Virus record (IMG/VR): IMGVR_UViG_2896589216_000005
From: a virus
Lineage: Duplodnaviria; Heunggongvirae; Uroviricota; Caudoviricetes
DNA: 52,416 nt
Reading direction: 5' to 3' (one strand)
In this document: piece by piece, positions 1 to 27,462 of the stretch
Position numbering within the stretch: position 1 is the first letter of the stretch
Layout: the number at the start of each line of letters is the position of its first letter
Position numbers and translations under genes: made by a program
Notes under the pieces: generated by a model
Database searches by the model: none
Told to the model about the DNA's origin: nothing
Seen by the model: the letters and a program-made list of their open reading frames with translations, nothing else

Positions 1-1131
1 TCAAATGACCAGTTTTTTCCATTCCTTACCGCGTGCGTCGTTGTAAATATCGGTCATTTTTTGATTCGAATGGCCTAGCAAAATTTTGGTATCAACCCCC
101 TGCTCTCTGAACAATCGCTCTGATAAAGATCTCTGCTCATGGAAAGAGGGAGGGGTGCCATTAGCACGCCAGTTGTAATCCACAGAATCCCGGGCTTTTT
201 TAAATGCAACGGTTAATGTTGCTGGCTTAACCATCCCGCCGCGCTTAGCTGTCCCTTTCGCGTGATGGTGGTGCAATAGCCACGGACTAAGAACGCAATC
301 GCGGCAGGATGACACCACATCATCCAGGGTGAGATTTAATTTATCGCAACGCAGAGCCAGAGGGATGGCAATCCGGGTTCCTGTTTTTTGCTGTTCGACA
401 TGAAGATAACCATCCCGGATATCCGAAAATTGCATTTTGCAAATATCTGAAAGGCGCTGGCCTGTCATCAGTGCCAGCAGCATACCGCGCTGTAAAAAGT
501 AACCATCCTTTTCCGCTGCGTTATAAATCATCATCCACTCATCAAAAGTCAGTCGCTGTCTTGATATCCGCACCTGCGGTTTTTTTGCCGATTCTGCAGG
601 GTTAAAGCCTGGCGGGACATCGCCCGTTTGCTGAGCTTCCCGGAAAACATCGATCAGTACTTTCCTGAAAATTTGTCCCATTCTGTTATGTCCTCTGGCC
701 TTGTACTCTTCCAGTACTGATACCACATCTTTTACGGTTATGACATCTAACGGTCTGGTGCCAAAACGTTCATCAAATACCCTGAGAGGGGCCGCTTTCT
801 GTTTCAGCGTGTTGAGTTTGATCTCGCCGTTTTCATATCTTTCCTGTTGAATTTTTCTGTAATTATTCAGAAAAATGGTAACGGTTGATGAACCGCCGGT
901 ATCACTAATAATTTTCTCCTGCAGACTGCGCATTTGTTCCATTTGCTGCCGGGCAAGACGGCTGTTCGCTTCTGCTGCAATAGTTTCTGCCAGTTTCTGG
1001 TCAATACTGCCGAGACCGTGATTTTTGCCTGTTATGGGATGCCTGTAACGCCAGTAAACTTTGTTATTTCTTTTATCAAAATACGGAGATAATCCCGGAA
1101 CATCGGTTTTATATTTTCGCGGGCGCGCCAT
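1..1131 (-). CDS. int: Phage integrase (tyrosine recombinase), 376 aa
   Basis: Six-frame ORF; lambdoid integrase-like sequence, followed on the same strand by an excisionase-like ORF; sits at prophage left end. Confidence 0.88.
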   Translation of the reverse strand: MARPRKYKTDVPGLSPYFDKRNNKVYWRYRHPITGKNHGLGSIDQKLAETIAAEANSRLARQQMEQMRSLQEKIISDTGGSSTVTIFLNNYRKIQQERYENGEIKLNTLKQKAAPLRVFDERFGTRPLDVITVKDVVSVLEEYKARGHNRMGQIFRKVLIDVFREAQQTGDVPPGFNPAESAKKPQVRISRQRLTFDEWMMIYNAAEKDGYFLQRGMLLALMTGQRLSDICKMQFSDIRDGYLHVEQQKTGTRIAIPLALRCDKLNLTLDDVVSSCRDCVLSPWLLHHHHAKGTAKRGGMVKPATLTVAFKKARDSVDYNWRANGTPPSFHEQRSLSERLFREQGVDTKILLGHSNQKMTDIYNDARGKEWKKLVI

Positions 1132-13094: not shown

Positions 13095-13293
13095 CGACTT
13101 TTACCAGAGAGCAGTTAATAGCTCACGCAGAGGAGACTATTGAAGCACAGAGACTGTGCATACCGGGCACAATCGACCATGACATCATCCGCACATATAA
13201 GATAGACTGGCCCCCTGAATCTCCAGACAACCAGTATCACTTAAATAAGTGATAGTCTTAATACTAGTTTTTAGACTAGTCATTGGAGTACAG

Positions 13294-13659
13294 ATGATTG
13301 ATGTCTTAGGGCCGGAGAAACGCAGACGGCGTACCACACAGGAAAAGATCGCAATTGTTCAGCAGAGCTTTGAACCGGGGATGACGGTCTCCCTCGTTGC
13401 CCGGCAACATGGTGTAGCAGCCAGCCAGTTATTTCTCTGGCGTAAGCAATACCAGGAAGGAAGTCTTACTGCTGTGGCCGCCGGAGAACAGGTTGTTCCT
13501 GCCTCTGAACTTGCTGCCGCCATGAAGCAGATTAAAGAACTCCAGCGCCTGCTCGGCAAGAAAACGATGGAAAATGAACTCCTCAAAGAAGCCGTTGAAT
13601 ATGGACGGGCAAAAAAGTGGATAGCGCACGCGCCCTTATTGCCCGGGGATGGGGAGTAA
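13294..13659 (+). CDS. insC: IS2 InsC (orfA)
   Basis: 121-aa ORF from [14 protein letters not shown]6G slippery site before stop. Confidence 0.9.
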
Positions 13660-14522
13660 GCTTAGTCAGCCGTTGTCTCCGGGTGTCGCGTGCGCAGTTG
13701 CACGTCATTCTCAGACGAACCGATGACTGGATGGATGGCCGCCGCAGTCGTCACACTGATGATACGGATGTGCTTCTCCGTATACACCATGTTATCGGAG
13801 AGCTGCCCACGTATGGTTATCGTCGGGTATGGGCGCTGCTTCGCAGACAGGCAGAACTTGATGGTATGCCTGCGATCAATGCCAAACGTGTTTACCGGAT
13901 CATGCGCCAGAATGCGCTGTTGCTTGAGCGAAAACCTGCTGTACCACCATCGAAACGGGCACATACAGGCAGAGTGGCCGTGAAAGAAAGCAATCAGCGA
14001 TGGTGCTCTGACGGGTTCGAGTTCTGCTGTGATAACGGAGAGAGACTGCGTGTCACGTTCGCGCTGGACTGCTGTGATCGTGAGGCACTGCACTGGGCGG
14101 TGACTACCGGCGGCTTCAACAGTGAAACAGTACAGGACGTCATGCTGGGAGCGGTGGAACGCCGCTTCGGCAACGATCTTCCGTCGTCTCCAGTGGAGTG
14201 GCTGACGGATAATGGTTCATGCTACCGGGCTAATGAAACACGCCAGTTCGCCCGGATGTTGGGACTTGAACCGAAGAACACGGCGGTGCGGAGTCCGGAG
14301 AGTAACGGAATAGCAGAGAGCTTCGTGAAAACGATAAAGCGTGACTACATCAGTATCATGCCCAAACCAGACGGGTTAACGGCAGCAAAGAACCTTGCAG
14401 AGGCGTTCGAGCATTATAACGAATGGCATCCGCATAGTGCGCTGGGTTATCGCTCGCCACGGGAATATCTGCGGCAGCGGGCTTGTAATGGGTTAAGTGA
14501 TAACAGATGTCTGGAAATATAG
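13617..14522 (+). CDS. insD: IS2 InsD (orfB transposase, DDE)
   Basis: 301-aa ORF in the -1 frame relative to insC. Confidence 0.9.
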
Positions 14523-14766
14523 GGGCAAATCCAAAGATGGATATTGCTGTTCTGGAAATCGCACTGGTATCGCTGGCAGCAGAGCCAGCCGGTAAATTGC
14601 ATGAATACAAACCAGTGGGATATCAGCGTCTGGTCGATGAGTTAACCATGCTGGTAAAGCAGTTAACCTGGCAACTGAGGAAAGCGAAGCCAGACTGCAA
14701 ATTACCGGATAAGGCGATGAGTTATCTGGAGCGGAACGGACTGATAAGCGTGGAGGATATTTTACG

Positions 14767-17090: not shown

Positions 17091-17465
17091 ATGCTCATAG
17101 ATTTGGTTTTACCTTACCCGCCGACGGTGAACACTTACTGGCGACGCCGTGGCAGCACATATTTTATCTCGGAGGAGGGAAAGCGTTATCGCCGGGCTGT
17201 GGCGCTTATTGTTCGCCAGCAGCGGCTGAAATTAATCCTGTCCGGAAGGCTGGCGATAAAGGTGATTGCAGAGCCACCGGATAAGCGTCGTCGCGACCTG
17301 GACAATATCCTGAAAGCACCGCTGGATGCGCTGACGCATGCGGGAGTGTTAATGGACGATGAGCAGTTTGATGAAATCAATATCGTTCGTGGTCAGCCAG
17401 TATCTGGTGGACGTATGGGGGTGAAGATTTACCCCATAATGCATGAAGAGCAGGTCAAAAAATGA
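17091..17465 (+). CDS. rusA: RusA-family Holliday junction resolvase
   Basis: 124-aa ORF; YPPTVNTYWRRRG and RRRDLDN motifs of RusA. Confidence 0.85.
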   Translation: MLIDLVLPYPPTVNTYWRRRGSTYFISEEGKRYRRAVALIVRQQRLKLILSGRLAIKVIAEPPDKRRRDLDNILKAPLDALTHAGVLMDDEQFDEINIVRGQPVSGGRMGVKIYPIMHEEQVKK

Positions 17466-18283
17466 AACTGGAAGATTTACCGAAATACTACTCCCCAAAA
17501 TCCCCTGGCCTGACCGATGTATCGGCCTCAACGTCAAAAGATGCGCTGAGTATCACTGATGTGATGGCCGCGCAGGGCATGACACAGAATCGGGCTGAGA
17601 TGGGGTTTTCTGCGTTCCTGGGGAAAATGGGCATCAGTATGAATGACAGGGCGCGGGCAACAGAATTACTGGCAGATTATGCACTCAGTCGGTGCGATCG
17701 TGTGGCGGCGTTGAGAAAACTTCCGGCAGAAATAAAACCGGTAGTGATGCGCATTATGGCTTCGTACGCTTTTGAGGATTATGCCCGCAGCGCAGCGAGT
17801 AAAAAGCAGTGCCCTTGTTGCTATGGGGAAAAATTTATTGAAAGCGTAGTTTTTACAAACAAGGTCCAGTATCCGGATGGTAAGCCGCCGGTATGGGCAA
17901 AGTGTACGAAAGGTGTGTATCCGTCTTACTGGGAAGAATGGAAAAAAGTCAGGGAGGTGGTAAAAGTTGCCTGTCCGGAGTGTGGCGGAAAGGGTGAGGT
18001 TTCCACCGCCTGTAAGGATTGCCGTGGGCGTGGTGTCGCCATTCATCGTGAAGAGTCGGTAAAACGTGGTATGCCTGTTATCAGAGACTGCCAGCGTTGT
18101 GGTGGTCGTGGCTGTGAAAGACTACCATCAACGGAGGCATTTAATGCCATATGCAAAGTGACGAGTGCTATCACGCTTGATACGTGGAAAAAATCAGTGA
18201 AACGCTTTTACGATACGTTGGTGGTTCGGTTTGACATTGAAGAGGCATGGGCGGAGCGGCAGTTAAAGAGGGTAACGCGATAG
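17462..18283 (+). CDS. Q: Late-gene antiterminator Q (zinc-binding type)
   Basis: 273-aa ORF with multiple CxxC pairs, located just upstream of a promoter/terminator pair and the late genes. Confidence 0.78.
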   Translation: MKLEDLPKYYSPKSPGLTDVSASTSKDALSITDVMAAQGMTQNRAEMGFSAFLGKMGISMNDRARATELLADYALSRCDRVAALRKLPAEIKPVVMRIMASYAFEDYARSAASKKQCPCCYGEKFIESVVFTNKVQYPDGKPPVWAKCTKGVYPSYWEEWKKVREVVKVACPECGGKGEVSTACKDCRGRGVAIHREESVKRGMPVIRDCQRCGGRGCERLPSTEAFNAICKVTSAITLDTWKKSVKRFYDTLVVRFDIEEAWAERQLKRVTR

Positions 18284-19956: not shown

Positions 19957-20032
19957 GGCCCTTTAGCTCAGTGGTGAGAGCGAGCGACTCATAATCGCCA
20001 GGTCGCTGGTTCAAATCCAGCAAGGGCCACCA
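19957..20032 (+). tRNA. ileZ: tRNA-Ile2 (anticodon CAU, lysidine type; ileZ-like)
   Basis: 76-nt cloverleaf by hand folding; anticodon loop CUCAUAA; near-identical to recalled ileX; encodes 3-prime CCA. Confidence 0.85.
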
Positions 20033-20039
20033 TCACATA

Positions 20040-20116
20040 CCGCCATTAGCTCATCGGGATAGAGCGCCAGCCTTCGAAGCTGGTTGCGCGGGGTTCGAGT
20101 TCTCGATGGCGGTCCA
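20040..20116 (+). tRNA. argO: tRNA-Arg (anticodon UCG)
   Basis: 77-nt cloverleaf by hand folding; anticodon loop CUUCGAA; T-loop TTCGAGT; encodes CCA. Confidence 0.78.
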
Positions 20117-20130
20117 TTTATCGGTATTCT

Positions 20131-20200
20131 GCGTTGTTAGCTCAGCCGGACAGAGCAATTGCCTTCTAAGCAGCTGTGGTTGCACTCCTGTTGTTTCTGG
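20131..20200 (+). pseudogene. Degenerate tRNA-Arg (UCU) remnant
   Basis: Intact acceptor 5-prime strand, D-arm and CUUCUAA loop, but no canonical T-arm or matching 3-prime acceptor strand. Confidence 0.4.
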
Positions 20201-20373
20201 TGGTGATGGTGGACTTCAGCAGCCGGATAATGTCGGTGCTGTCTGATGATGTTTTGGTGGCGGGTGTGGTGGTTGTTGCTTTCCCGTTGCTGAAAAAGAA
20301 AGCATCAGGCGATTAGCAGGGTATCAGTTACCCGTTGAAATTTTTAAATACCTCACAATTCCACAGCTTGATG

Positions 20374-20570
20374 ATTGTCTGGCTGCCGGAGAATTTGTTA
20401 AAAATTACATCGCATGGTGAATCCCCCTCAGCGGCGGGGCATCTGGCAAAGTGTATGATCCAGAGAACATGCAAATTCAGTAGACAGGCTGAATTTACCG
20501 GGAGGCACCTGGCACCATGCGACAGACAGAAATTAGGCTATACTTCAGCCCCTCTCCGGAGGGGCTTTTC
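20374..20570 (+). repeat. Structured direct-repeat unit A (about 200 bp) ending in an 8-bp GC hairpin plus T-run
   Basis: Shares conserved blocks with unit B; terminal hairpin AGCCCCTC-TCCG-GAGGGGCT followed by TTTTCT. Confidence 0.5.
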
Positions 20571-20842
20571 TGTGCAGGATGTGTCACAGTTTCCTGAATT
20601 CTGAGTACTGTCCTGTTACTCAGGGTGCTATATTTTCTGACGTGATGAAAGTCTGCCGGAAGGCGGAACGTATCGGAAATGACCCAGTAGAGAAAACGTT
20701 GACTCAGATACCGATGCTGAGTTACCGGGAAACCGGCATCACATGACCGCTATCCTTCCAGGCTCGCTCCGGCGGGCCTTTTTACTGCAGAAAACAGTTT
20801 TCCCGTAAAATGCTACGTTGCTCATAATTCAGGCTGGCGATT

Positions 20843-21035
20843 ATTGTCTGGCCAGCGGGAAGTTTGTTAAAAAATTTCGCATGGTGAATCCCCCTGTGCG
20901 GAGGGGCAATCAGCGAGTAGGTATATGGGATAATCGCGGATTCAGGTGCTGGTACTGAATTCACCGGGAGGCACCCGGCACCATGCAATGGCACATAGCG
21001 CCACTCTCCAGCCCCTCTCCGGAGGGGCTGTTTAT
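20843..21035 (+). repeat. Structured direct-repeat unit B
   Basis: Same block order as unit A, 469 bp downstream; identical terminal hairpin. Confidence 0.5.
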
Positions 21036-21064
21036 ATTGATTTTGTCAGATGTGAGTAAACTCC

Positions 21065-21400
21065 TTATGGACTTTGTTGTTTTAGTCCATAAGGACATAT
21101 TTGCAGAGTGCAACGGTTATTAAAGCATTCATTCAATACGTTATCTGTATTTGTAGGGCATTCCTGGCTGTTTTTGATTAAATTCCAGAATGTTTTATTG
21201 AATGGCACTACGTTGTAAATGGTTACAGGTAGCACTTTGTTATTGAGCATGATGCCTGTGTGAGTCAGTGTAAATATACTTTCAGGAGGTAAGAAAGCAT
21301 CCGATTGATACCAGATTATTAATTTTATTTTACTCCATATGACTGAAAAAGATATTCCGCATGATGGCTGGATAACTGTATCAATCACAATCCACTTCAT
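21065..21400 (-). CDS. Hypothetical protein in AT-rich island, 111 aa
   Basis: ORF with AGGAAA SD 4 nt before the ATG; low GC relative to flanks; the 3-prime end overlaps a hairpin, so the C-terminus is uncertain. Confidence 0.4.
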
Positions 21401-21659
21401 TTAGTTTCCTTGTTTATGTCTTGCTGGTGATGTTCTGAAAAGTATAAATGATATTTTTGATTGTAAACCATAGAGCAGAATTATTTTTCTGATGTTGTTT
21501 ATTGTTTATTTAAATGCATGGTGGTTTATATCTCGTCTTGTAGTTTATCCATGCATATCTGCTTGATGATGAGGTTTTTATTTAAGGTATGGTTTTGTTT
21601 TTTTCTGTATTACATGTCAGGTATTTTAAAGAATCATTTTTCAGATGGTGGAAAGAACC

Positions 21660-23516
21660 ATGGCATTTAAACACTATGATGTTGTCAGGGCGGCGTCGCC
21701 GTCAGATCTTGCGGAAAAGCTGACACATAAACTGAAAGAGGGCTGGCAGCCGTTTGGTAGTCCGGTGGCCATAACCCCTTATACCCTGATGCAGGCGATT
21801 GCAGCAGAAGGTGATGTGGTCGTCAGTGGTGCAACTGAGCCGGAGTGGTACTACGTCATCGTACTGGCCGGGCAATCCAATGCCATGGCTTACGGTGAAG
21901 GGCTTCCGCTTCCGGATTCTTACGATGCGCCCCACCCACGTATTAAGCAACTGGCCCGTCGCAACACAGTGACTCCCGGTGGTAAAGCATGCGCATTTAA
22001 CGACATCATTCCGGCAGACCACTGCCTGCATGATGTTCAGGATATGAGCGCACTGAATCATCCGAAGGCAGACCTGAGCAAAGGGCAGTACGGCTGTGTC
22101 GGCCAGGGCTTACATATTGCCAAAAAACTGCTTCCGTATATCCCGAATAACGCGGGGATCCTGCTGGTACCATGCTGTCGTGGTGGTTCGGCATTCACCC
22201 AGGGCGCGGAGGGGACATTCAGTGCGGACACGGGGGCCAGCCAGGATTCGGCACGCTGGGGTGTGGGTAAACCGTTATATCAGGACCTGATCGCACGCAC
22301 CAAAGCGGCATTACAGAAGAACCCGAAAAATGTGTTGCTGGCGGTGTGCTGGATGCAGGGCGAATTTGACATGAGCGCTGCCACCTACGCACAGCAACCG
22401 GACCTGTTCACGGCCATGCTGAAGCAGTTCCGTACTGACCTTTCCGGATTTAACGCGCAGTGCCATGGCGGCAGTGCTGCAGTTGTACCGTGGATTTGTG
22501 GCGACACGACGTATTACTGGAAAAACACATACGGCACACAGTATGACTCCGTCTACGGCGCGTACAAAAACAGGGAGAGCGACAACGTTTTCTTTGTGCC
22601 GTTCATGACCGACGGTAACGGCAACAACACGCCCACCAACTTACCGGCAGAAGACCCGGATATTGCTGATGCAGGTTATTACGGCGCGCAATCCCGTAGT
22701 AATGGTAATTGGGTATCGTCAAATCGTCCGACACATTTCAGTTCATGGGCGCGCAGGGGCATTATTTCGGATCGCCTGGCAACCGCTATTCTGAACGCAG
22801 TTGGTCGAACCAGCGCCTTCATCAGCGGTACCGCACCGGAGATTAAACCCTCGCCCGGCGGCGACACGCCATCGGGGCCGTCTGATGGTGACACATCCGT
22901 TCGTACAGTCTCCCTGCTGCCGACAGCCGGAGAGGCTGCTGCGCAGGGCTGGACCATCACCGGCGGCAGTGTTGCGCTGGAAGATGGTGTGTTTAAGGTT
23001 ACCAAGCAGAGCAATAAAACCTGGTCCCTGATGCATCCGGTGGATGACGCAGTCTCCCTGCTGACACGGGGTGGCAGACTGAGCTGTAAGTTTCGACTGT
23101 CAGGCGCACTGACCAACAACCAGTTCGGTCTGGGAATTTATCTGTATACCGATGTAGCGTTACCTGACGTCGTGGCGATGACCGGGACTGGTAACCCGTT
23201 CCTGATGTCGTTCTTCACCCAGACCACAGACGGCAAACTGAATCTGATGCATCACAAGAAAGCCGGAAACACAAAGTTGGGCGAGTTCGGGAATTACAGT
23301 AACGACTGGCAGACGCTGGAGCTGGTGTTCACCGCCGGCAGTGCCACGGTTACTCCGAAACTGAATGGAGTGGCTGGCCCGGCATTCCAGGTCATAAAAG
23401 ACAGTCTGACACTGGGGCTGAATGCGCTGACGCTGACGGATATTACCAAAAATGCAGCGTATGGCGTTGAGATAGAAAGTCTGGTGCTGGAGATAAATGC
23501 ACCGGCATCATCATAA
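21660..23516 (+). CDS. NanS-p-like sialate O-acetylesterase (DUF1737 + SGNH/SASA esterase)
   Basis: GQSNA esterase motif and N-terminal DUF1737-like segment; the position Stx-type phages use for this gene. Confidence 0.78.
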   Translation: MAFKHYDVVRAASPSDLAEKLTHKLKEGWQPFGSPVAITPYTLMQAIAAEGDVVVSGATEPEWYYVIVLAGQSNAMAYGEGLPLPDSYDAPHPRIKQLARRNTVTPGGKACAFNDIIPADHCLHDVQDMSALNHPKADLSKGQYGCVGQGLHIAKKLLPYIPNNAGILLVPCCRGGSAFTQGAEGTFSADTGASQDSARWGVGKPLYQDLIARTKAALQKNPKNVLLAVCWMQGEFDMSAATYAQQPDLFTAMLKQFRTDLSGFNAQCHGGSAAVVPWICGDTTYYWKNTYGTQYDSVYGAYKNRESDNVFFVPFMTDGNGNNTPTNLPAEDPDIADAGYYGAQSRSNGNWVSSNRPTHFSSWARRGIISDRLATAILNAVGRTSAFISGTAPEIKPSPGGDTPSGPSDGDTSVRTVSLLPTAGEAAAQGWTITGGSVALEDGVFKVTKQSNKTWSLMHPVDDAVSLLTRGGRLSCKFRLSGALTNNQFGLGIYLYTDVALPDVVAMTGTGNPFLMSFFTQTTDGKLNLMHHKKAGNTKLGEFGNYSNDWQTLELVFTAGSATVTPKLNGVAGPAFQVIKDSLTLGLNALTLTDITKNAAYGVEIESLVLEINAPASS

Positions 23517-23662
23517 AAAGTGAGCCAGTCAAATGGAAGGTATCGTTAAACTCACCGGTAGTGTCAGTGGGTAGACTGGCCCCCTGAATCTCCAGACAAC
23601 CAGTATCACTTAAATAAGTGATAGTCTTAATACTAGTTTTTAGACTAGTCATTGGAGTACAG

Positions 23663-24094
23663 ATGATTGATGTCTTAGGGCCGGAGAAACGCAGACGGCG
23701 TACCACACAGGAAAAGATCGCAATTGTTCAGCAGAGCTTTGAACCGGGGATGACGGTCTCCCTCGTTGCCCGGCAACATGGTGTAGCAGCCAGGCAGTTA
23801 TTTCTCTGGCGTAAGCAATACCAGGAAGGAAGTCTTACTGCTGTGGCCGCCGGAGAACAGGTTGTTCCTGCCTCTGAACTTGCTGCCGCCATGAAGCAGA
23901 TTAAAGAACTCCAGCGCCTGCTCGGCAAGAAAACGATGGAAAATGAACTCCTCAAAGAAGCCGTTGAATATGGACGGGCAAAAAAGTGGATAGCGCACGC
24001 GCCCTTATTGCCGGGGATGGGGAGTAAGCTTAGTCAGCCGTTGTCTCCGGGTGTCGCGTGCGCAGTTGCACGTCATTCTCAGACGAACCGATGA
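23663..24094 (+). CDS. insC: IS2 orfA (InsC) of copy 2, C-terminally altered
   Basis: ORF extended to 143 aa by the 1-bp deletion; S-to-R substitution relative to copy 1. Confidence 0.7.
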
Positions 24095-24890
24095 CTGGAT
24101 GGATGGCCGCCGCAGTCGTCACACTGATGATACGGATGTGCTTCTCCGTATACACCATGTTATCGGAGAGCTGCCCACGTATGGTTATCGTCGGGTATGG
24201 GCGCTGCTTCGCAGACAGGCAGAACTTGATGGTATGCCTGCGATCAATGCCAAACGTGTTTACCGGATCATGCGCCAGAATGCGCTGTTGCTTGAGCGAA
24301 AACCTGCTGTACCACCATCGAAACGGGCACATACAGGCAGAGTGGCCGTGAAAGAAAGCAATCAGCGATGGTGCTCTGACGGGTTCGAGTTCTGCTGTGA
24401 TAACGGAGAGAGACTGCGTGTCACGTTCGCGCTGGACTGCTGTGAGCGTGAGGCACTGCACTGGGCGGTGACTACCGGCGGCTTCAACAGTGAAACAGTA
24501 CAGGACGTCATGCTGGGAGCGGTGGAACGCCGCTTCGGCAACGATCTTCCGTCGTCTCCAGTGGAGTGGCTGACGGATAATGGTTCATGCTACCGGGCTA
24601 ATGAAACACGCCAGTTCGCCCGGATGTTGGGACTTGAACCGAAGAACACGGCGGTGCGGAGTCCGGAGAGTAACGGAATAGCAGAGAGCTTCGTGAAAAC
24701 GATAAAGCGTGACTACATCAGTATCATGCCCAAACCAGACGGGTTAACGGCAGCAAAGAACCTTGCAGAGGCGTTCGAGCATTATAACGAATGGCATCCG
24801 CATAGTGCGCTGGGTTATCGCTCGCCACGGGAATATCTGCGGCAGCGGGCTTGTAATGGGTTAAGTGATAACAGATGTCTGGAAATATAG
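24051..24890 (+). CDS. insD: IS2 orfB (InsD) of copy 2, N-terminally truncated (279 aa)
   Basis: Lacks the first 22 codons present in copy 1; D-to-E substitution. Confidence 0.7.
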
Positions 24891-25001
24891 GGGCAAATCC
24901 AGTGGGTCGTCTGAGATGCCTGCATGAGTTATCAGAGCCATCAGTACTTAACTGGTGGCTTTTTTTATTGTTGTCAGCTTCCGGATAACGGGAGACGGGG
25001 T

Positions 25002-25217
25002 ATGTACCAGATGGAAAAAATCACAACAGGTGTGTCATACACCACGTCAGCGGTGGGAACGGGCTACTGGTTCCTGCAGTTGCTGGACAGGGTTTCCCCG
25101 TCTCAGTGGGCGGCAATAGGCGTGCTGGGGAGTCTGCTGTTTGGGCTGCTGACATATCTGACTAACCTGTATTTCAAAATCAGAGAGGACCGTCGTAAGG
25201 CGGCACGGGGAGAGTAA
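25002..25217 (+). CDS. Class II holin/pinholin (EssD/EssQ-like), 71 aa, dual-start motif
   Basis: [10 protein letters not shown]... with two transmembrane segments; dual start Met1/Met4. Confidence 0.85.
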
Positions 25218-25221
25218 TTCA

Positions 25222-25566
25222 ATGACTCAAAACTATGAACTGATTGTGAAAGGGATCCGCAATTTTGAGAATAAAGTTACGGTAACTTTAGCGTTACGGG
25301 ACAAAAAACGCTTTGACGGTGAAATTTTTGACCTGGACATCGCGCTGGACCGTGTTGAAGGTGCCGCGCTGGAGTTTTATGAGGCAGCAGCCAGAAGGAG
25401 CATCAGACAGGTCTTCCTGGATGTTGCTGCCGGGTTATGTGAAGGGGATGAGCAGTCGCCGGAAAAGCGCCCCGTAATTTTAGAGGCGCAGGATGTGTTG
25501 ATAACCTACAGAGGAAAACTACCGGGAATAATTACGGGTTCTCTGAAGAGTCCGCCGAAATGGTAA
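25222..25566 (+). CDS. YdfR-like protein (DUF1327) inside the lysis cassette
   Basis: 114-aa ORF between holin and endolysin, as ydfR is in Qin. Confidence 0.55.
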   Translation: MTQNYELIVKGIRNFENKVTVTLALRDKKRFDGEIFDLDIALDRVEGAALEFYEAAARRSIRQVFLDVAAGLCEGDEQSPEKRPVILEAQDVLITYRGKLPGIITGSLKSPPKW

Positions 25567-25804
25567 TTTTACCAGCATATTTTTCATCCAGTAATACAGC
25601 AAGCCGCCTGAAAGAGTCTTGTTGTTCCTGAGACCATTTGGGATTGCATGATTCAAACTGGATTGATGCCAGCGTTGATTGCATCTGTTCCCTTGGAATT
25701 GAGAATGCCAGATATGAGAAGGCGACGGTAAGGGTATTCACGTCTTCCCGAAGCCTAGAAATGCTGTCGAGCAACTCCTGTAGAGAAATGGTGTTATTGT
25801 CCAT
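25532..25804 (-). CDS. Hypothetical 90-aa protein encoded antisense within the lysis cassette
   Basis: Minus-strand ORF with GAGGA SD 6 nt upstream of the ATG; overlaps the 3-prime end of the ydfR-like gene by 35 nt. Confidence 0.4.
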   Translation of the reverse strand: MDNNTISLQELLDSISRLREDVNTLTVAFSYLAFSIPREQMQSTLASIQFESCNPKWSQEQQDSFRRLAVLLDEKYAGKITISADSSENP

Positions 25805-25909
25805 AAATAATCCTCATGATTGTATTGACCTGTTAGCAGCCTGAGGCAACAGGCTGGAACTGATAAACATATCCAGGGCTCAGAAACCGATAAATCCTGA
25901 TAAATATCC

Positions 25910-26443
25910 ATGAACGCAAAAATCAGATACGGCCTGTCGGCTGCCGTTCTGGCGCTGATTGCCGCTGGTGCGCCTGCGCCTGACATTCTCGACCAGTTTC
26001 TGGATGAAAAGGAAGGTAACCACACCACGGCATACCGTGATGGCGCGGGTATCTGGACCATCTGCCGCGGTGCCATCCTGGTGGATGGCAAACCTGTCGT
26101 TCCGGGCATGAAGTTGTCGAAGGAAAAATGCGACCGGGTTAACGCCATTGAGCGTGATAAGGCGCTGGCATGGGTGGAGAAAAACATCAGAGTGCCATTG
26201 AGCGAACCCCAGAAAGCGGGGATCGCGTCATTCTGTCCGTACAACATTGGTCCCGGTAAGTGTTTCCCGTCGACGTTTTATAAACGAATTAATGCAGGTG
26301 ATCGCAGGGGAGCGTGTGAGGCGATTCGCTGGTGGATTAAGGACGGTGGCAGAGACTGCCGTATTCGTTCAAACAACTGCTACGGTCAGGTATCCCGTCG
26401 TGACCAGGAGAGCGCGCTGGCGTGCTGGGGTATCGACAGATAA
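25910..26443 (+). CDS. Endolysin (lysozyme, GH24-like) with N-terminal SAR signal-anchor
   Basis: 177-aa ORF; hydrophobic Gly/Ala-rich N-terminus then T4-lysozyme-like core. Confidence 0.85.
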   Translation: MNAKIRYGLSAAVLALIAAGAPAPDILDQFLDEKEGNHTTAYRDGAGIWTICRGAILVDGKPVVPGMKLSKEKCDRVNAIERDKALAWVEKNIRVPLSEPQKAGIASFCPYNIGPGKCFPSTFYKRINAGDRRGACEAIRWWIKDGGRDCRIRSNNCYGQVSRRDQESALACWGIDR

Positions 26444-26602
26444 GCAGAATATTTTGCTGAAAAATGCGGTTTGCTTACACGGACGGATAACACGAAATCC
26501 TGCGAACTGACAAAAACTAAGTGAATAAAAGTAAAAACCCCGTTTGTTGGCTGCAAGCGGGGTTTTGTGTTTCCTGACTCTGGAAAAGTCAAAGGAGAAA
26601 GT

Positions 26603-26740
26603 GTGTTTGATTTTAGCAAACTGATTCGGGAGATTCGAGTGATGGCTGAAAAATTATCCACCTGGAAGTTCATTCTTATCTGGCTGGTGTTTGTGATTAT
26701 GGCCTCCGGTTATTTCATCGGTCAGATACGCTGGTGGTGA
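26603..26740 (+). CDS. Possible small membrane protein (45 aa) between endolysin and Rz
   Basis: GTG start after AAAGGAGA SD; hydrophobic stretch KFILIWLVFVIMASGYFIG; stop 1 nt before the Rz start. Confidence 0.3.
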   Translation: MFDFSKLIREIRVMAEKLSTWKFILIWLVFVIMASGYFIGQIRWW

Positions 26741-26741
26741 A

Positions 26742-27209
26742 ATGAACCGCGTACTGTGCGTGGTCATCATTGCCCTGCTGGTGGCCTGTGGTGCGCTTAG
26801 TCTGGGGCTGAATCATTACCGTGATAACGCCATAACCTACAAAGAGCAGCGCGATAAAAAAGTCAGTGAGCTGGAGCAGGCAAATGCAACCATTACTGAT
26901 ATGCAGCAGCGCCAGCGTGATGTTGCTGCACTTGATGCCAGATACTCGAGGGAATTAGCCGATGCGAGAGCTGAAAATGAAACTCTGCGCGCTGACGTTG
27001 CCGCTGGTCGTAAGCGCCTGCGGATCAACGCCACCTGCCCCGGTACCGTGCGTGAAGCCCCCACCACCTCCGGCGTGGATAATGCAACCGGCCCCCGACT
27101 GGCAGACACCGCTGAACGGGATTATTTCACTCTCAGAGAGCGGTTGATGCTGATGCAGAAGCAGCTGGAAGTGGCGCAGGAATATATCCGCACTCAGTGC
27201 CTGAAATAA
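26742..27209 (+). CDS. Rz: Rz i-spanin
   Basis: 155-aa ORF with N-terminal TM segment and coiled-coil; follows the endolysin. Confidence 0.85.
   Translation: MNRVLCVVIIALLVACGALSLGLNHYRDNAITYKEQRDKKVSELEQANATITDMQQRQRDVAALDARYSRELADARAENETLRADVAAGRKRLRINATCPGTVREAPTTSGVDNATGPRLADTAERDYFTLRERLMLMQKQLEVAQEYIRTQCLK
26962..27147 (+). CDS. Rz1: Rz1 o-spanin lipoprotein embedded in the +1 frame of Rz
   Basis: Signal peptide with lipobox VVSAC and proline-rich mature part; entirely inside Rz. Confidence 0.7.
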   Translation: MRELKMKLCALTLPLVVSACGSTPPAPVPCVKPPPPPAWIMQPAPDWQTPLNGIISLSESG

Positions 27210-27462
27210 GTTTTGCTGATTCGCGGTATTGTCGCCGTATCCCCGCATTAACAGAGACCGCAGCCCGACCGGGAGACTCCTCTGCGCGAGTGTGCGGGGA
27301 TAATCAAAAACGATACACACCGGGGTTTACCGCGTTAACGGAGCGCGGCGTTGTCCCCTCATAGTCGCCTGTCCGGTGCGATGGTGGAAGAAACCGGACT
27401 ACATTGAAAATGATAACCATTATCATTTTTGCGGGTCCTTTCCGGCGATCCGGGCCGTTACG

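Follow-up and report, generated by a model that had tools for sequence, protein, structure and literature searches.

A probable pinholin and signal-anchor-release endolysin cassette in an stx-less, Stx-phage-like lambdoid prophage of Escherichia coli

Does the lysis region of a lambdoid Escherichia coli prophage encode a pinholin acting with a signal-anchor-release (SAR) endolysin, or a holin that frees a cytoplasmic endolysin in the manner of lambda S and R? The question is raised by a holin gene and a lysozyme gene that lie within positions 25,002 to 26,443 of the IMG/VR virus record IMGVR_UViG_2896589216_000005, a stretch of 52,416 nucleotides (hereafter the window) that the prophage fills. 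An initial annotation of this DNA had read the two genes as a pinholin-type system and not one of the lambda S/R type, a reading upheld by a holin of family PF04971 with two transmembrane domains (TMDs) and by an endolysin with an N-terminal hydrophobic segment. The region is very probably the lysis cassette, comprising a pinholin and a SAR endolysin, of an stx-less lambdoid prophage that resembles the Shiga toxin (Stx) phages (Table 1).

The holin gene opens with the N-terminal sequence MYQMEK, offers another in-frame ATG at codon 4 and ends in a stop codon at 25215-25217. Its product matches the Pfam family PF04971, 'Bacteriophage P21 holin S', with an E-value of 9e-33 and 112.5 bits (cut-off 26), as well as the PHROG holin families phrog_9876 and phrog_20. 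The reference for S21, the holin of phage 21, was taken from OL657228, a record that labels the gene S21-71 antiholin / S21-68 pinholin; the two proteins are 79% identical across all 71 residues and share both starts, a TMD1 rich in Gly, Ala, Ser and Thr, and residues M1, M4, G40, S44 and G48. Identity to S of the Stx2a phage 933W is 99%, a single substitution separating two proteins that both begin MYQMEK, and the holins of many Stx-converting phages are 100% identical. The two-TMD topology was read from hydropathy alone, that is, from uncharged runs and their composition; the second uncharged segment is followed by a basic, charged C-terminal tail. On TMD2, the small-residue face formed by G40, S44 and G48 occupies invariant columns in alignments with S21, with 933W S, with EssD of prophage DLP12 and with EssQ of Qin, the cryptic prophage of E. 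coli K-12. By every feature testable in its sequence, the protein is a class II holin of the phage 21 S family (pinholin; PF04971, TCDB 1.E.1), and by analogy with S21 it is predicted to form small, depolarising holes that do not release a cytoplasmic endolysin. A longer holin open reading frame (ORF) of 97 residues, starting at 24924, was rejected: it spans a terminator-like hairpin, has no Shine-Dalgarno (SD) sequence, and has no equivalent in S21 or 933W.

The lysozyme gene encodes a protein that opens with MNAKIRYGLSAAVLALIAAGAPAPDILDQFLDEKEG and matches the Pfam family PF00959, 'Phage lysozyme' (E=1.3e-23), and the PHROG family phrog_7. Its identity is 93% with 933W R, 88% with RrrQ of Qin and 36% with R21, the endolysin of phage 21. 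Among solved structures its sequence matches the FAHEc1 endolysin, R21 (full-length 3hde and truncated 3hdf) and RrrD of DLP12 (4zpu), with E-values of about 1e-15 for R21 and RrrD. The catalytic triad E35, D44 and T50, spaced as Glu-8aa-Asp-5aa-Thr, is invariant in comparison with R21 and RrrD and in 40 homologues. In the comparison with S21 and R21 that the initial annotation had proposed as a check, the holin is 79% and the endolysin 36% identical to their phage 21 counterparts and the triad aligns. An AlphaFold model of the endolysin has a predicted template-modelling score (pTM) of 0.80, and Foldseek matched its fold to 3hde, 7m5i and T4 lysozyme, and to P1 Lyz (1xjt) with an E-value of 4.6e-4.

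The 933W R/RrrQ subfamily contains eight invariant cysteines (C52, C74, C109, C118, C136, C150, C157 and C172), compared with four in R21, a number that fits an enzyme folding in the oxidising periplasm. The four cysteines additional to those of R21 form two close pairs, C109/C118 and C150/C157, around loops of low AlphaFold confidence. The C150-C157 loop is absent from R21, and its length varies among homologues (CRIRSNNC versus CRLTKGQKNGC). Both loops are probably periplasmic and closed by disulfides.

The initial annotation had also assigned the lysozyme an N-terminal SAR segment. A putative segment of this type is present: beyond the positively charged K4 and R6 lies a weakly hydrophobic, Ala/Gly-rich run of 18 uncharged residues, 56% Gly/Ala/Ser/Thr and devoid of Cys. 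Mean pairwise identity among homologues is 70% in this run, compared with 28% in the n-region that precedes it and 84% in the catalytic domain, indicating that the run is unlike a disposable leader. Its two Ala-X-Ala motifs are each followed by proline (A19-G-A21 before P22, and A21-P-A23 before P24), and proline at +1 blocks cleavage by leader peptidase. In the AlphaFold model, the residue blocks 11-20 and 21-30 have mean predicted local distance difference test (pLDDT) values of 95-96 and fold as a helix (11-18), a turn and a second helix (23-35). In Foldseek, the alignment of the model to full-length R21 (3hde) extends across 174-181 columns (TM 0.70-0.77), that to the SAR-less 3hdf across 140 only. 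Model confidence and the superposition on full-length R21 are both consistent with the segment's staying within the folded enzyme. The SAR endolysin class was defined by the Young laboratory, which is also the source of a 933W R construct. That construct bears the label 'phage 933W SAR endolysin' and a citation of Kuty's 2011 dissertation (PMC9239132). Within the first 30 residues there is no Cys in the endolysin or in 39 homologues, the first being C52; the lack of a cysteine in the SAR segment excludes thiol activation of the P1 Lyz or Lyz103 type and makes refolding of the R21 type the better model. Export of R as a lipoprotein or through the Tat pathway was considered and rejected, the N-terminus having neither a Cys nor a twin-Arg motif.

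The two in-frame holin starts had been taken by the initial annotation for the usual holin/antiholin arrangement. The starts themselves are confirmed: ATG codons are found at 25002 and 25011, and neither Met1 nor Met4 varies when the protein is aligned with S21, EssD, EssQ and 933W S. In a survey of the 120 best holin homologue clusters, 99 contained two Met residues one or two codons apart, which, together with the invariance of Met1 and Met4, suggests that the double start is selected and does not reflect chance. The start geometry also stands, a single SD sequence serving both codons at the distance from ATG1 that is found for the annotated S21 ribosome-binding site in phage 21. What does not stand is the basic residue expected between the starts, the extension here being Met-Tyr-Gln. 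Lys or Arg separates the two Met residues in 54 of the 99 dual-Met clusters (MKSMDK, MYRMDK and MLRMEK, with the extensions MKS, MYR, MLR, MK and MMK), while 45 have no basic residue at this place (MYQMEK, MNQMEK, MHQMEK and MDQMEK, with the extensions MYQ, MNQ, MHQ, MFQ and MDQ); Asp is present in four (MDQMEK). The residues between the Met codons differ by clade, that of the Stx phages being of the uncharged type. A small hairpin over the holin SD (CUUCCG/CGGGAG) gave a z-score of -0.29 and its phage 21 counterpart one of -1.22; neither is significant.

Several observations weigh against the assignment of a pinholin and SAR endolysin in the phage 21 manner. At 18 residues, the last four of them APAP, the hydrophobic run is short and only marginally membrane-competent on the Hessa scale, which would also suit a signal-peptide h-region; in some homologues Ala-X-Ala is followed by Ser or Thr (AGA by S, APA by S or T), which fits the -3/-1 rule; and we found no paper that tests SAR behaviour directly in the 933W/RrrQ subfamily, for which the only support is a plasmid entry with a dissertation as its reference. 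Deletion of rrrQ in K-12, which had no peptidoglycan or vesicle phenotype, is silent on SAR behaviour (PMC12287860). The best 19-mer has a Kyte-Doolittle (KD) value of 1.74, compared with 2.11 in R21, and its three best 19-mers have a summed Hessa dG of +5.4 to +7.9 kcal/mol, compared with +0.8 to +3.0 kcal/mol in R21. The N-terminus could on this evidence be an ordinary Sec signal peptide cut by leader peptidase, yielding a soluble periplasmic enzyme that the energised membrane, or some other factor, keeps inactive, with the holin as depolariser and timer only. Its layout is that of a signal peptide, with K4 and R6 in the n-region, a core of 13-14 residues (LSAAVLALIAAGA) and a Pro/Ala c-region, and the summed dG is positive in every 19-mer window; a secreted endolysin with a cleaved leader is exemplified by Lys44 of the Oenococcus phage fOg44. 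This explanation is nevertheless very improbable in view of the proline behind both Ala-X-Ala motifs of the endolysin itself, the conservation of the segment relative to the n-region, the very high confidence with which it is modelled and the superposition of the whole model on full-length R21, the Young laboratory's treatment of 933W R, with its 93% identity, as a member of the SAR class, and the partnership with a pinholin. The evidence leans towards a SAR domain over a cleaved signal peptide, the finding that the initial annotation had named as refuting its reading, with release occurring, we infer, without cleavage; Sec export of R, its inactive tethering and its depolarisation-driven release are predicted by analogy. 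Scarcely credible is a canonical large-hole holin that frees a cytoplasmic endolysin in the lambda S/R style. Nothing specific speaks for it beyond its being the general default for lambdoid phages, and it must contend with a class II, two-TMD holin of PF04971, unlike lambda S, with an N-terminal export or anchor segment on the endolysin, unlike lambda R, and with the homology of the pair to S21/R21 and to 933W. The three-TMD class I holin and the endolysin without an N-terminal hydrophobic segment that mark the lambda system are not what this locus encodes.

Also to be set on the opposing side is the composition of the holin extension, which lacks Lys and Arg, S21, EssD and EssQ all having Met-Lys-Ser. 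The antiholin nature of S21-71 and of lambda S107 has been ascribed to one extra positively charged residue that hinders the exit of TMD1 (PMC9636201; bioRxiv 10.1101/2024.01.23.576932). Together with the 45 dual-Met clusters that have no basic residue, four of them with Asp, this makes it a serious possibility, if not the one we favor, that the Met1 product is no antiholin, that the two starts are functionally equivalent or that one of them is used, and that the motif is a conserved relic or a feature of translational efficiency. Yet both Met residues are retained in all variants, arguing for selection on two starts; the three added residues, a bulky Tyr among them, could still slow the exit of TMD1; and the SD is positioned as in S21. 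Both start codons are probably used. Because the double start is conserved without a basic residue (MYQ, MNQ, MHQ and even MDQ), the long product may not be a charge-based antiholin. We offer as an unlikely but specific suggestion that within the S21 family the Stx-phage branch times lysis not by such an antiholin but by a charge-independent effect of the extension, or by the YdfR/DUF1327 protein or the 45-residue TMD protein encoded in the cassette. The remaining contrary observations concern expression. An insertion sequence, IS2, and two hairpins sit in the path of the lysis-gene transcript, the stretch before the endolysin ATG (25910), at 25870-25909, is AT-rich and has no recognisable SD, and the 692 bp between S and R uncouple the two genes; the endolysin start thus differs from those of 933W, Qin and phage 21 in being neither SD-led nor coupled to an upstream gene. 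With IS2 100 bp upstream of the holin exerting polarity on late transcription, and with two IS2 copies in a prophage that may be defective, the cassette could be intact but poorly expressed or silent. Lying between the esterase gene and S, this copy has the 5-bp direct repeat GTGGG on either side, at 23567-71 and 24902-06; an IS2-free site of 99.7% identity is found in E. coli CB209 as well as in several further genomes, and coverage of positions 23300-27250 in one place does not exceed 80% in any genome of the E. coli set. A second copy lies at 13203-14533 in the same orientation, relative to which the holin-side copy lacks 1 bp in the orfA/orfB overlap and shows two substitutions, so that its transposase is probably defective. 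As for the hairpins, these are pattern matches only, terminator-like sites being no commoner than in shuffled sequence. In lambda, Q-modified RNA polymerase transcribes through terminators, and silence of the cassette is for this reason not concluded; the natural operon already contains hairpin terminators, and the lysis ORFs are all full length. We consider a silent cassette rather unlikely, and it would touch the expression of the pinholin and SAR endolysin, not their identity.

The mechanism that follows from the pinholin and SAR endolysin assignment is drawn by homology to phage 21, the features observed here being those of the sequence alone. Late transcription, antiterminated by Q, would run through the esterase gene, IS2 and the upstream hairpin into S. 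The holin would build up in the inner membrane with both of its TMDs inserted, until TMD1 leaves the bilayer and TMD2 oligomerises into heptameric channels of roughly 2 nm that collapse the proton-motive force. Meanwhile R would be exported by Sec and tethered, inactive, at the periplasmic face of the membrane through its uncleaved, weakly hydrophobic N-terminal segment. Depolarisation would hasten the release of R, and the freed segment would refold onto the catalytic domain as in R21, a step proposed because the SAR domain lacks the Cys needed for thiol activation of the P1 Lyz type. The active muramidase would then degrade the murein, after which Rz and Rz1 would disrupt the outer membrane.

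The surroundings of the cassette, with gene order read from ORF and domain scans, are those of a lambdoid prophage. No Shiga toxin subunit was found among the ORFs scanned upstream of the esterase gene. In Stx phages, stxAB occupies the stretch between the tRNA genes and the nanS-p-type esterase gene. Here, this gap of about 1.5 kb (within 19957-21645) holds a single ORF of at least 100 residues, which encodes 111 residues on the minus strand and has no Pfam match, indicating that the prophage is an stx-less relative of the Stx phages. The lysis genes follow the esterase gene in the order S (holin), ydfR, antisense ORF, R (endolysin), small TMD ORF and Rz/Rz1, with every ORF intact; in RefSeq the same genes carry the labels 'class II holin family protein', 'YdfR family protein', 'lysozyme' and 'lysis protein'.

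The description of the holin as paired with the endolysin, made in the initial annotation, requires qualification, since the two belong to the same late-operon cassette but are not neighbours: 692 bp, containing ydfR and a convergent ORF, lie between them. ydfR begins 4 nt after the holin stop codon, exactly where R is placed in 933W, and together with the convergent ORF forms an insert of about 690 bp between holin and endolysin relative to that phage. The convergent ORF, of 90 residues, has no Pfam match, and searches of NCBIfam and PADLOC returned no match for ydfR, the antisense ORF or the 45-residue ORF downstream of the endolysin. The last of these, the TMD of which is C-terminal, is unannotated in most records; tblastn located it in 53 phage records, where it is conserved at the protein level. 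A homologue likewise lies between endolysin and Rz in the Salmonella phage SPN3UB, and homologues of 50% identity occur in Pseudomonas phages in a non-lysis context. The ORF may encode a small membrane protein tied to lysis, or it may be a moron.

Comparison with known systems places the locus between two of them. 933W has the nanS-p-type esterase gene upstream and Rz/Rz1 downstream, as here, and its R shares the N-terminal segment, the triad and the eight cysteines of the endolysin. In 933W, however, S and R are 4 nt apart and ant lies between R and Rz, where the 45-residue TMD ORF is found here; the prophage further differs from 933W in having no stx genes and in having IS2 upstream of S. 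The Qin series essQ-ydfR-rrrQ-rzpQ/rzoQ has the same order of holin, YdfR and lysozyme, and EssQ is 79% identical to the holin as RrrQ is 88% to the endolysin. The start of EssQ is MKSMDK, with Lys2, in contrast to MYQMEK here; in Qin, moreover, ydfR overlaps rrrQ, there is no antisense ORF, and the spanin is of the DUF2514 type. In gene content and arrangement, the locus is a 933W-type S/R pair in Qin-type order.

Phage 21, DLP12 and P1 provide further comparisons. R21 has the fold, the E35/D44/T50 numbering and the Cys-free N-terminal segment in common with the endolysin, but at 36% identity its hydrophobic run is longer (24 residues, compared with 18 here) and more hydrophobic, it has four cysteines and not eight, and it lacks the C150-C157 loop. 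The S21 extension is MKS where that of the holin is MYQ, and the S21 and R21 genes overlap where the corresponding genes here are separated. In DLP12, EssD shares Met1, Met4 and the TMD2 face, and RrrD the catalytic triad. P1 Lyz, the prototype SAR endolysin, has a GH24 fold and an N-terminal SAR-type segment, as here. Activation of P1 Lyz occurs by disulfide isomerisation and needs a Cys in the SAR domain, which neither the endolysin nor the homologues examined possess, and the P1 holin is LydA, not a pinholin of the S21 type.

Table 1. Positions of the lysis genes, their parts and neighbouring features in the window
Feature	Position	Strand	Remarks
Integrase	1-1131		
RusA gene			after integrase, before Q
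Q antiterminator	17462-18283		
DNA methylase			352-aa ORF after Q
tRNA-Met and tRNA-Arg			after Q and methylase genes, before esterase
nanS-p-type SASA esterase	21645-23516		precedes lysis cassette
IS2 copy, 1330 bp	23572-24901	+	between esterase and holin genes, ends 100 bp before holin ATG; both ends match IS2 exactly; Pfam transposase domains; context, outside the lysis machinery
Terminator-like hairpin and T-run	24934-24962	+	just upstream of holin; pattern match
Shine-Dalgarno GGGAG	24990-24994	+	7 nt before ATG1, 16 nt before ATG4
Holin, long form, 71 aa	25002-25217	+	counterpart of S21-71; PF04971, S21 and 933W S alignments
Holin, short form from Met4, 68 aa	25011-25217	+	counterpart of lytic effector S21-68; Met4 invariant
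Holin TMD1 (predicted), residues 7-28	25020-25085	+	uncharged run, 50% Gly/Ala/Ser/Thr; matches releasable, inhibitory S21 TMD1
Holin TMD2 (predicted), residues 36-58	25107-25175	+	inside uncharged run 31-58; matches hole-lining S21 helix
YdfR-family (DUF1327) gene	25222-25566	+	PF07041 E=7.7e-43; phrog_406; RefSeq 'YdfR family protein'
Convergent 90-aa ORF	25532-25804	-	overlaps ydfR 3' end; phrog_2411 E=1.1e-58; hypothetical protein in RefSeq and phage vB_EcoS-783R2
Endolysin R, 177 aa, predicted SAR endolysin	25910-26443	+	GH24 T4-lysozyme-type muramidase, 933W R / Qin RrrQ subfamily
Putative SAR segment, residues 7-24	25928-25981	+	YGLSAAVLALIAAGAPAP; after MNAKIR (K4, R6), before D25
Catalytic triad codons E35, D44, T50	26012-14, 26039-41, 26057-59	+	Glu-8aa-Asp-5aa-Thr pattern
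Terminator-like hairpin	26534-26566	+	between endolysin and small ORF/Rz
45-aa single-TMD ORF	26603-26740	+	GTG start after AAGGAG, stops 1 nt before Rz ATG; phrog_6632 E=1.4e-29
Rz i-spanin, 155 aa	26742-27209	+	PF03245 E=8e-49; phrog_13
Rz1 o-spanin lipoprotein	26962-27147	+	within Rz, +1 frame; lipobox VSAC; PF06085 E=7.6e-21; phrog_3198
Terminase Nu1/A, then head and tail genes			downstream of Rz/Rz1

About 99% of Stx phages have been found to carry a predicted SAR endolysin together with a pinholin (PMC8136144), and the holins of Stx2a phages have been described as pinholins of the P21 S family (PMC10462455). Since published surveys describe such cassettes and RefSeq annotates these genes, a pinholin and SAR endolysin cassette of this sequence type is already known. 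Its recognition here matters little beyond correct annotation, such cassettes being standard among lambdoid prophages of the Stx and Stx-like kinds, where they are relevant to toxin release and to prophage-mediated lysis.

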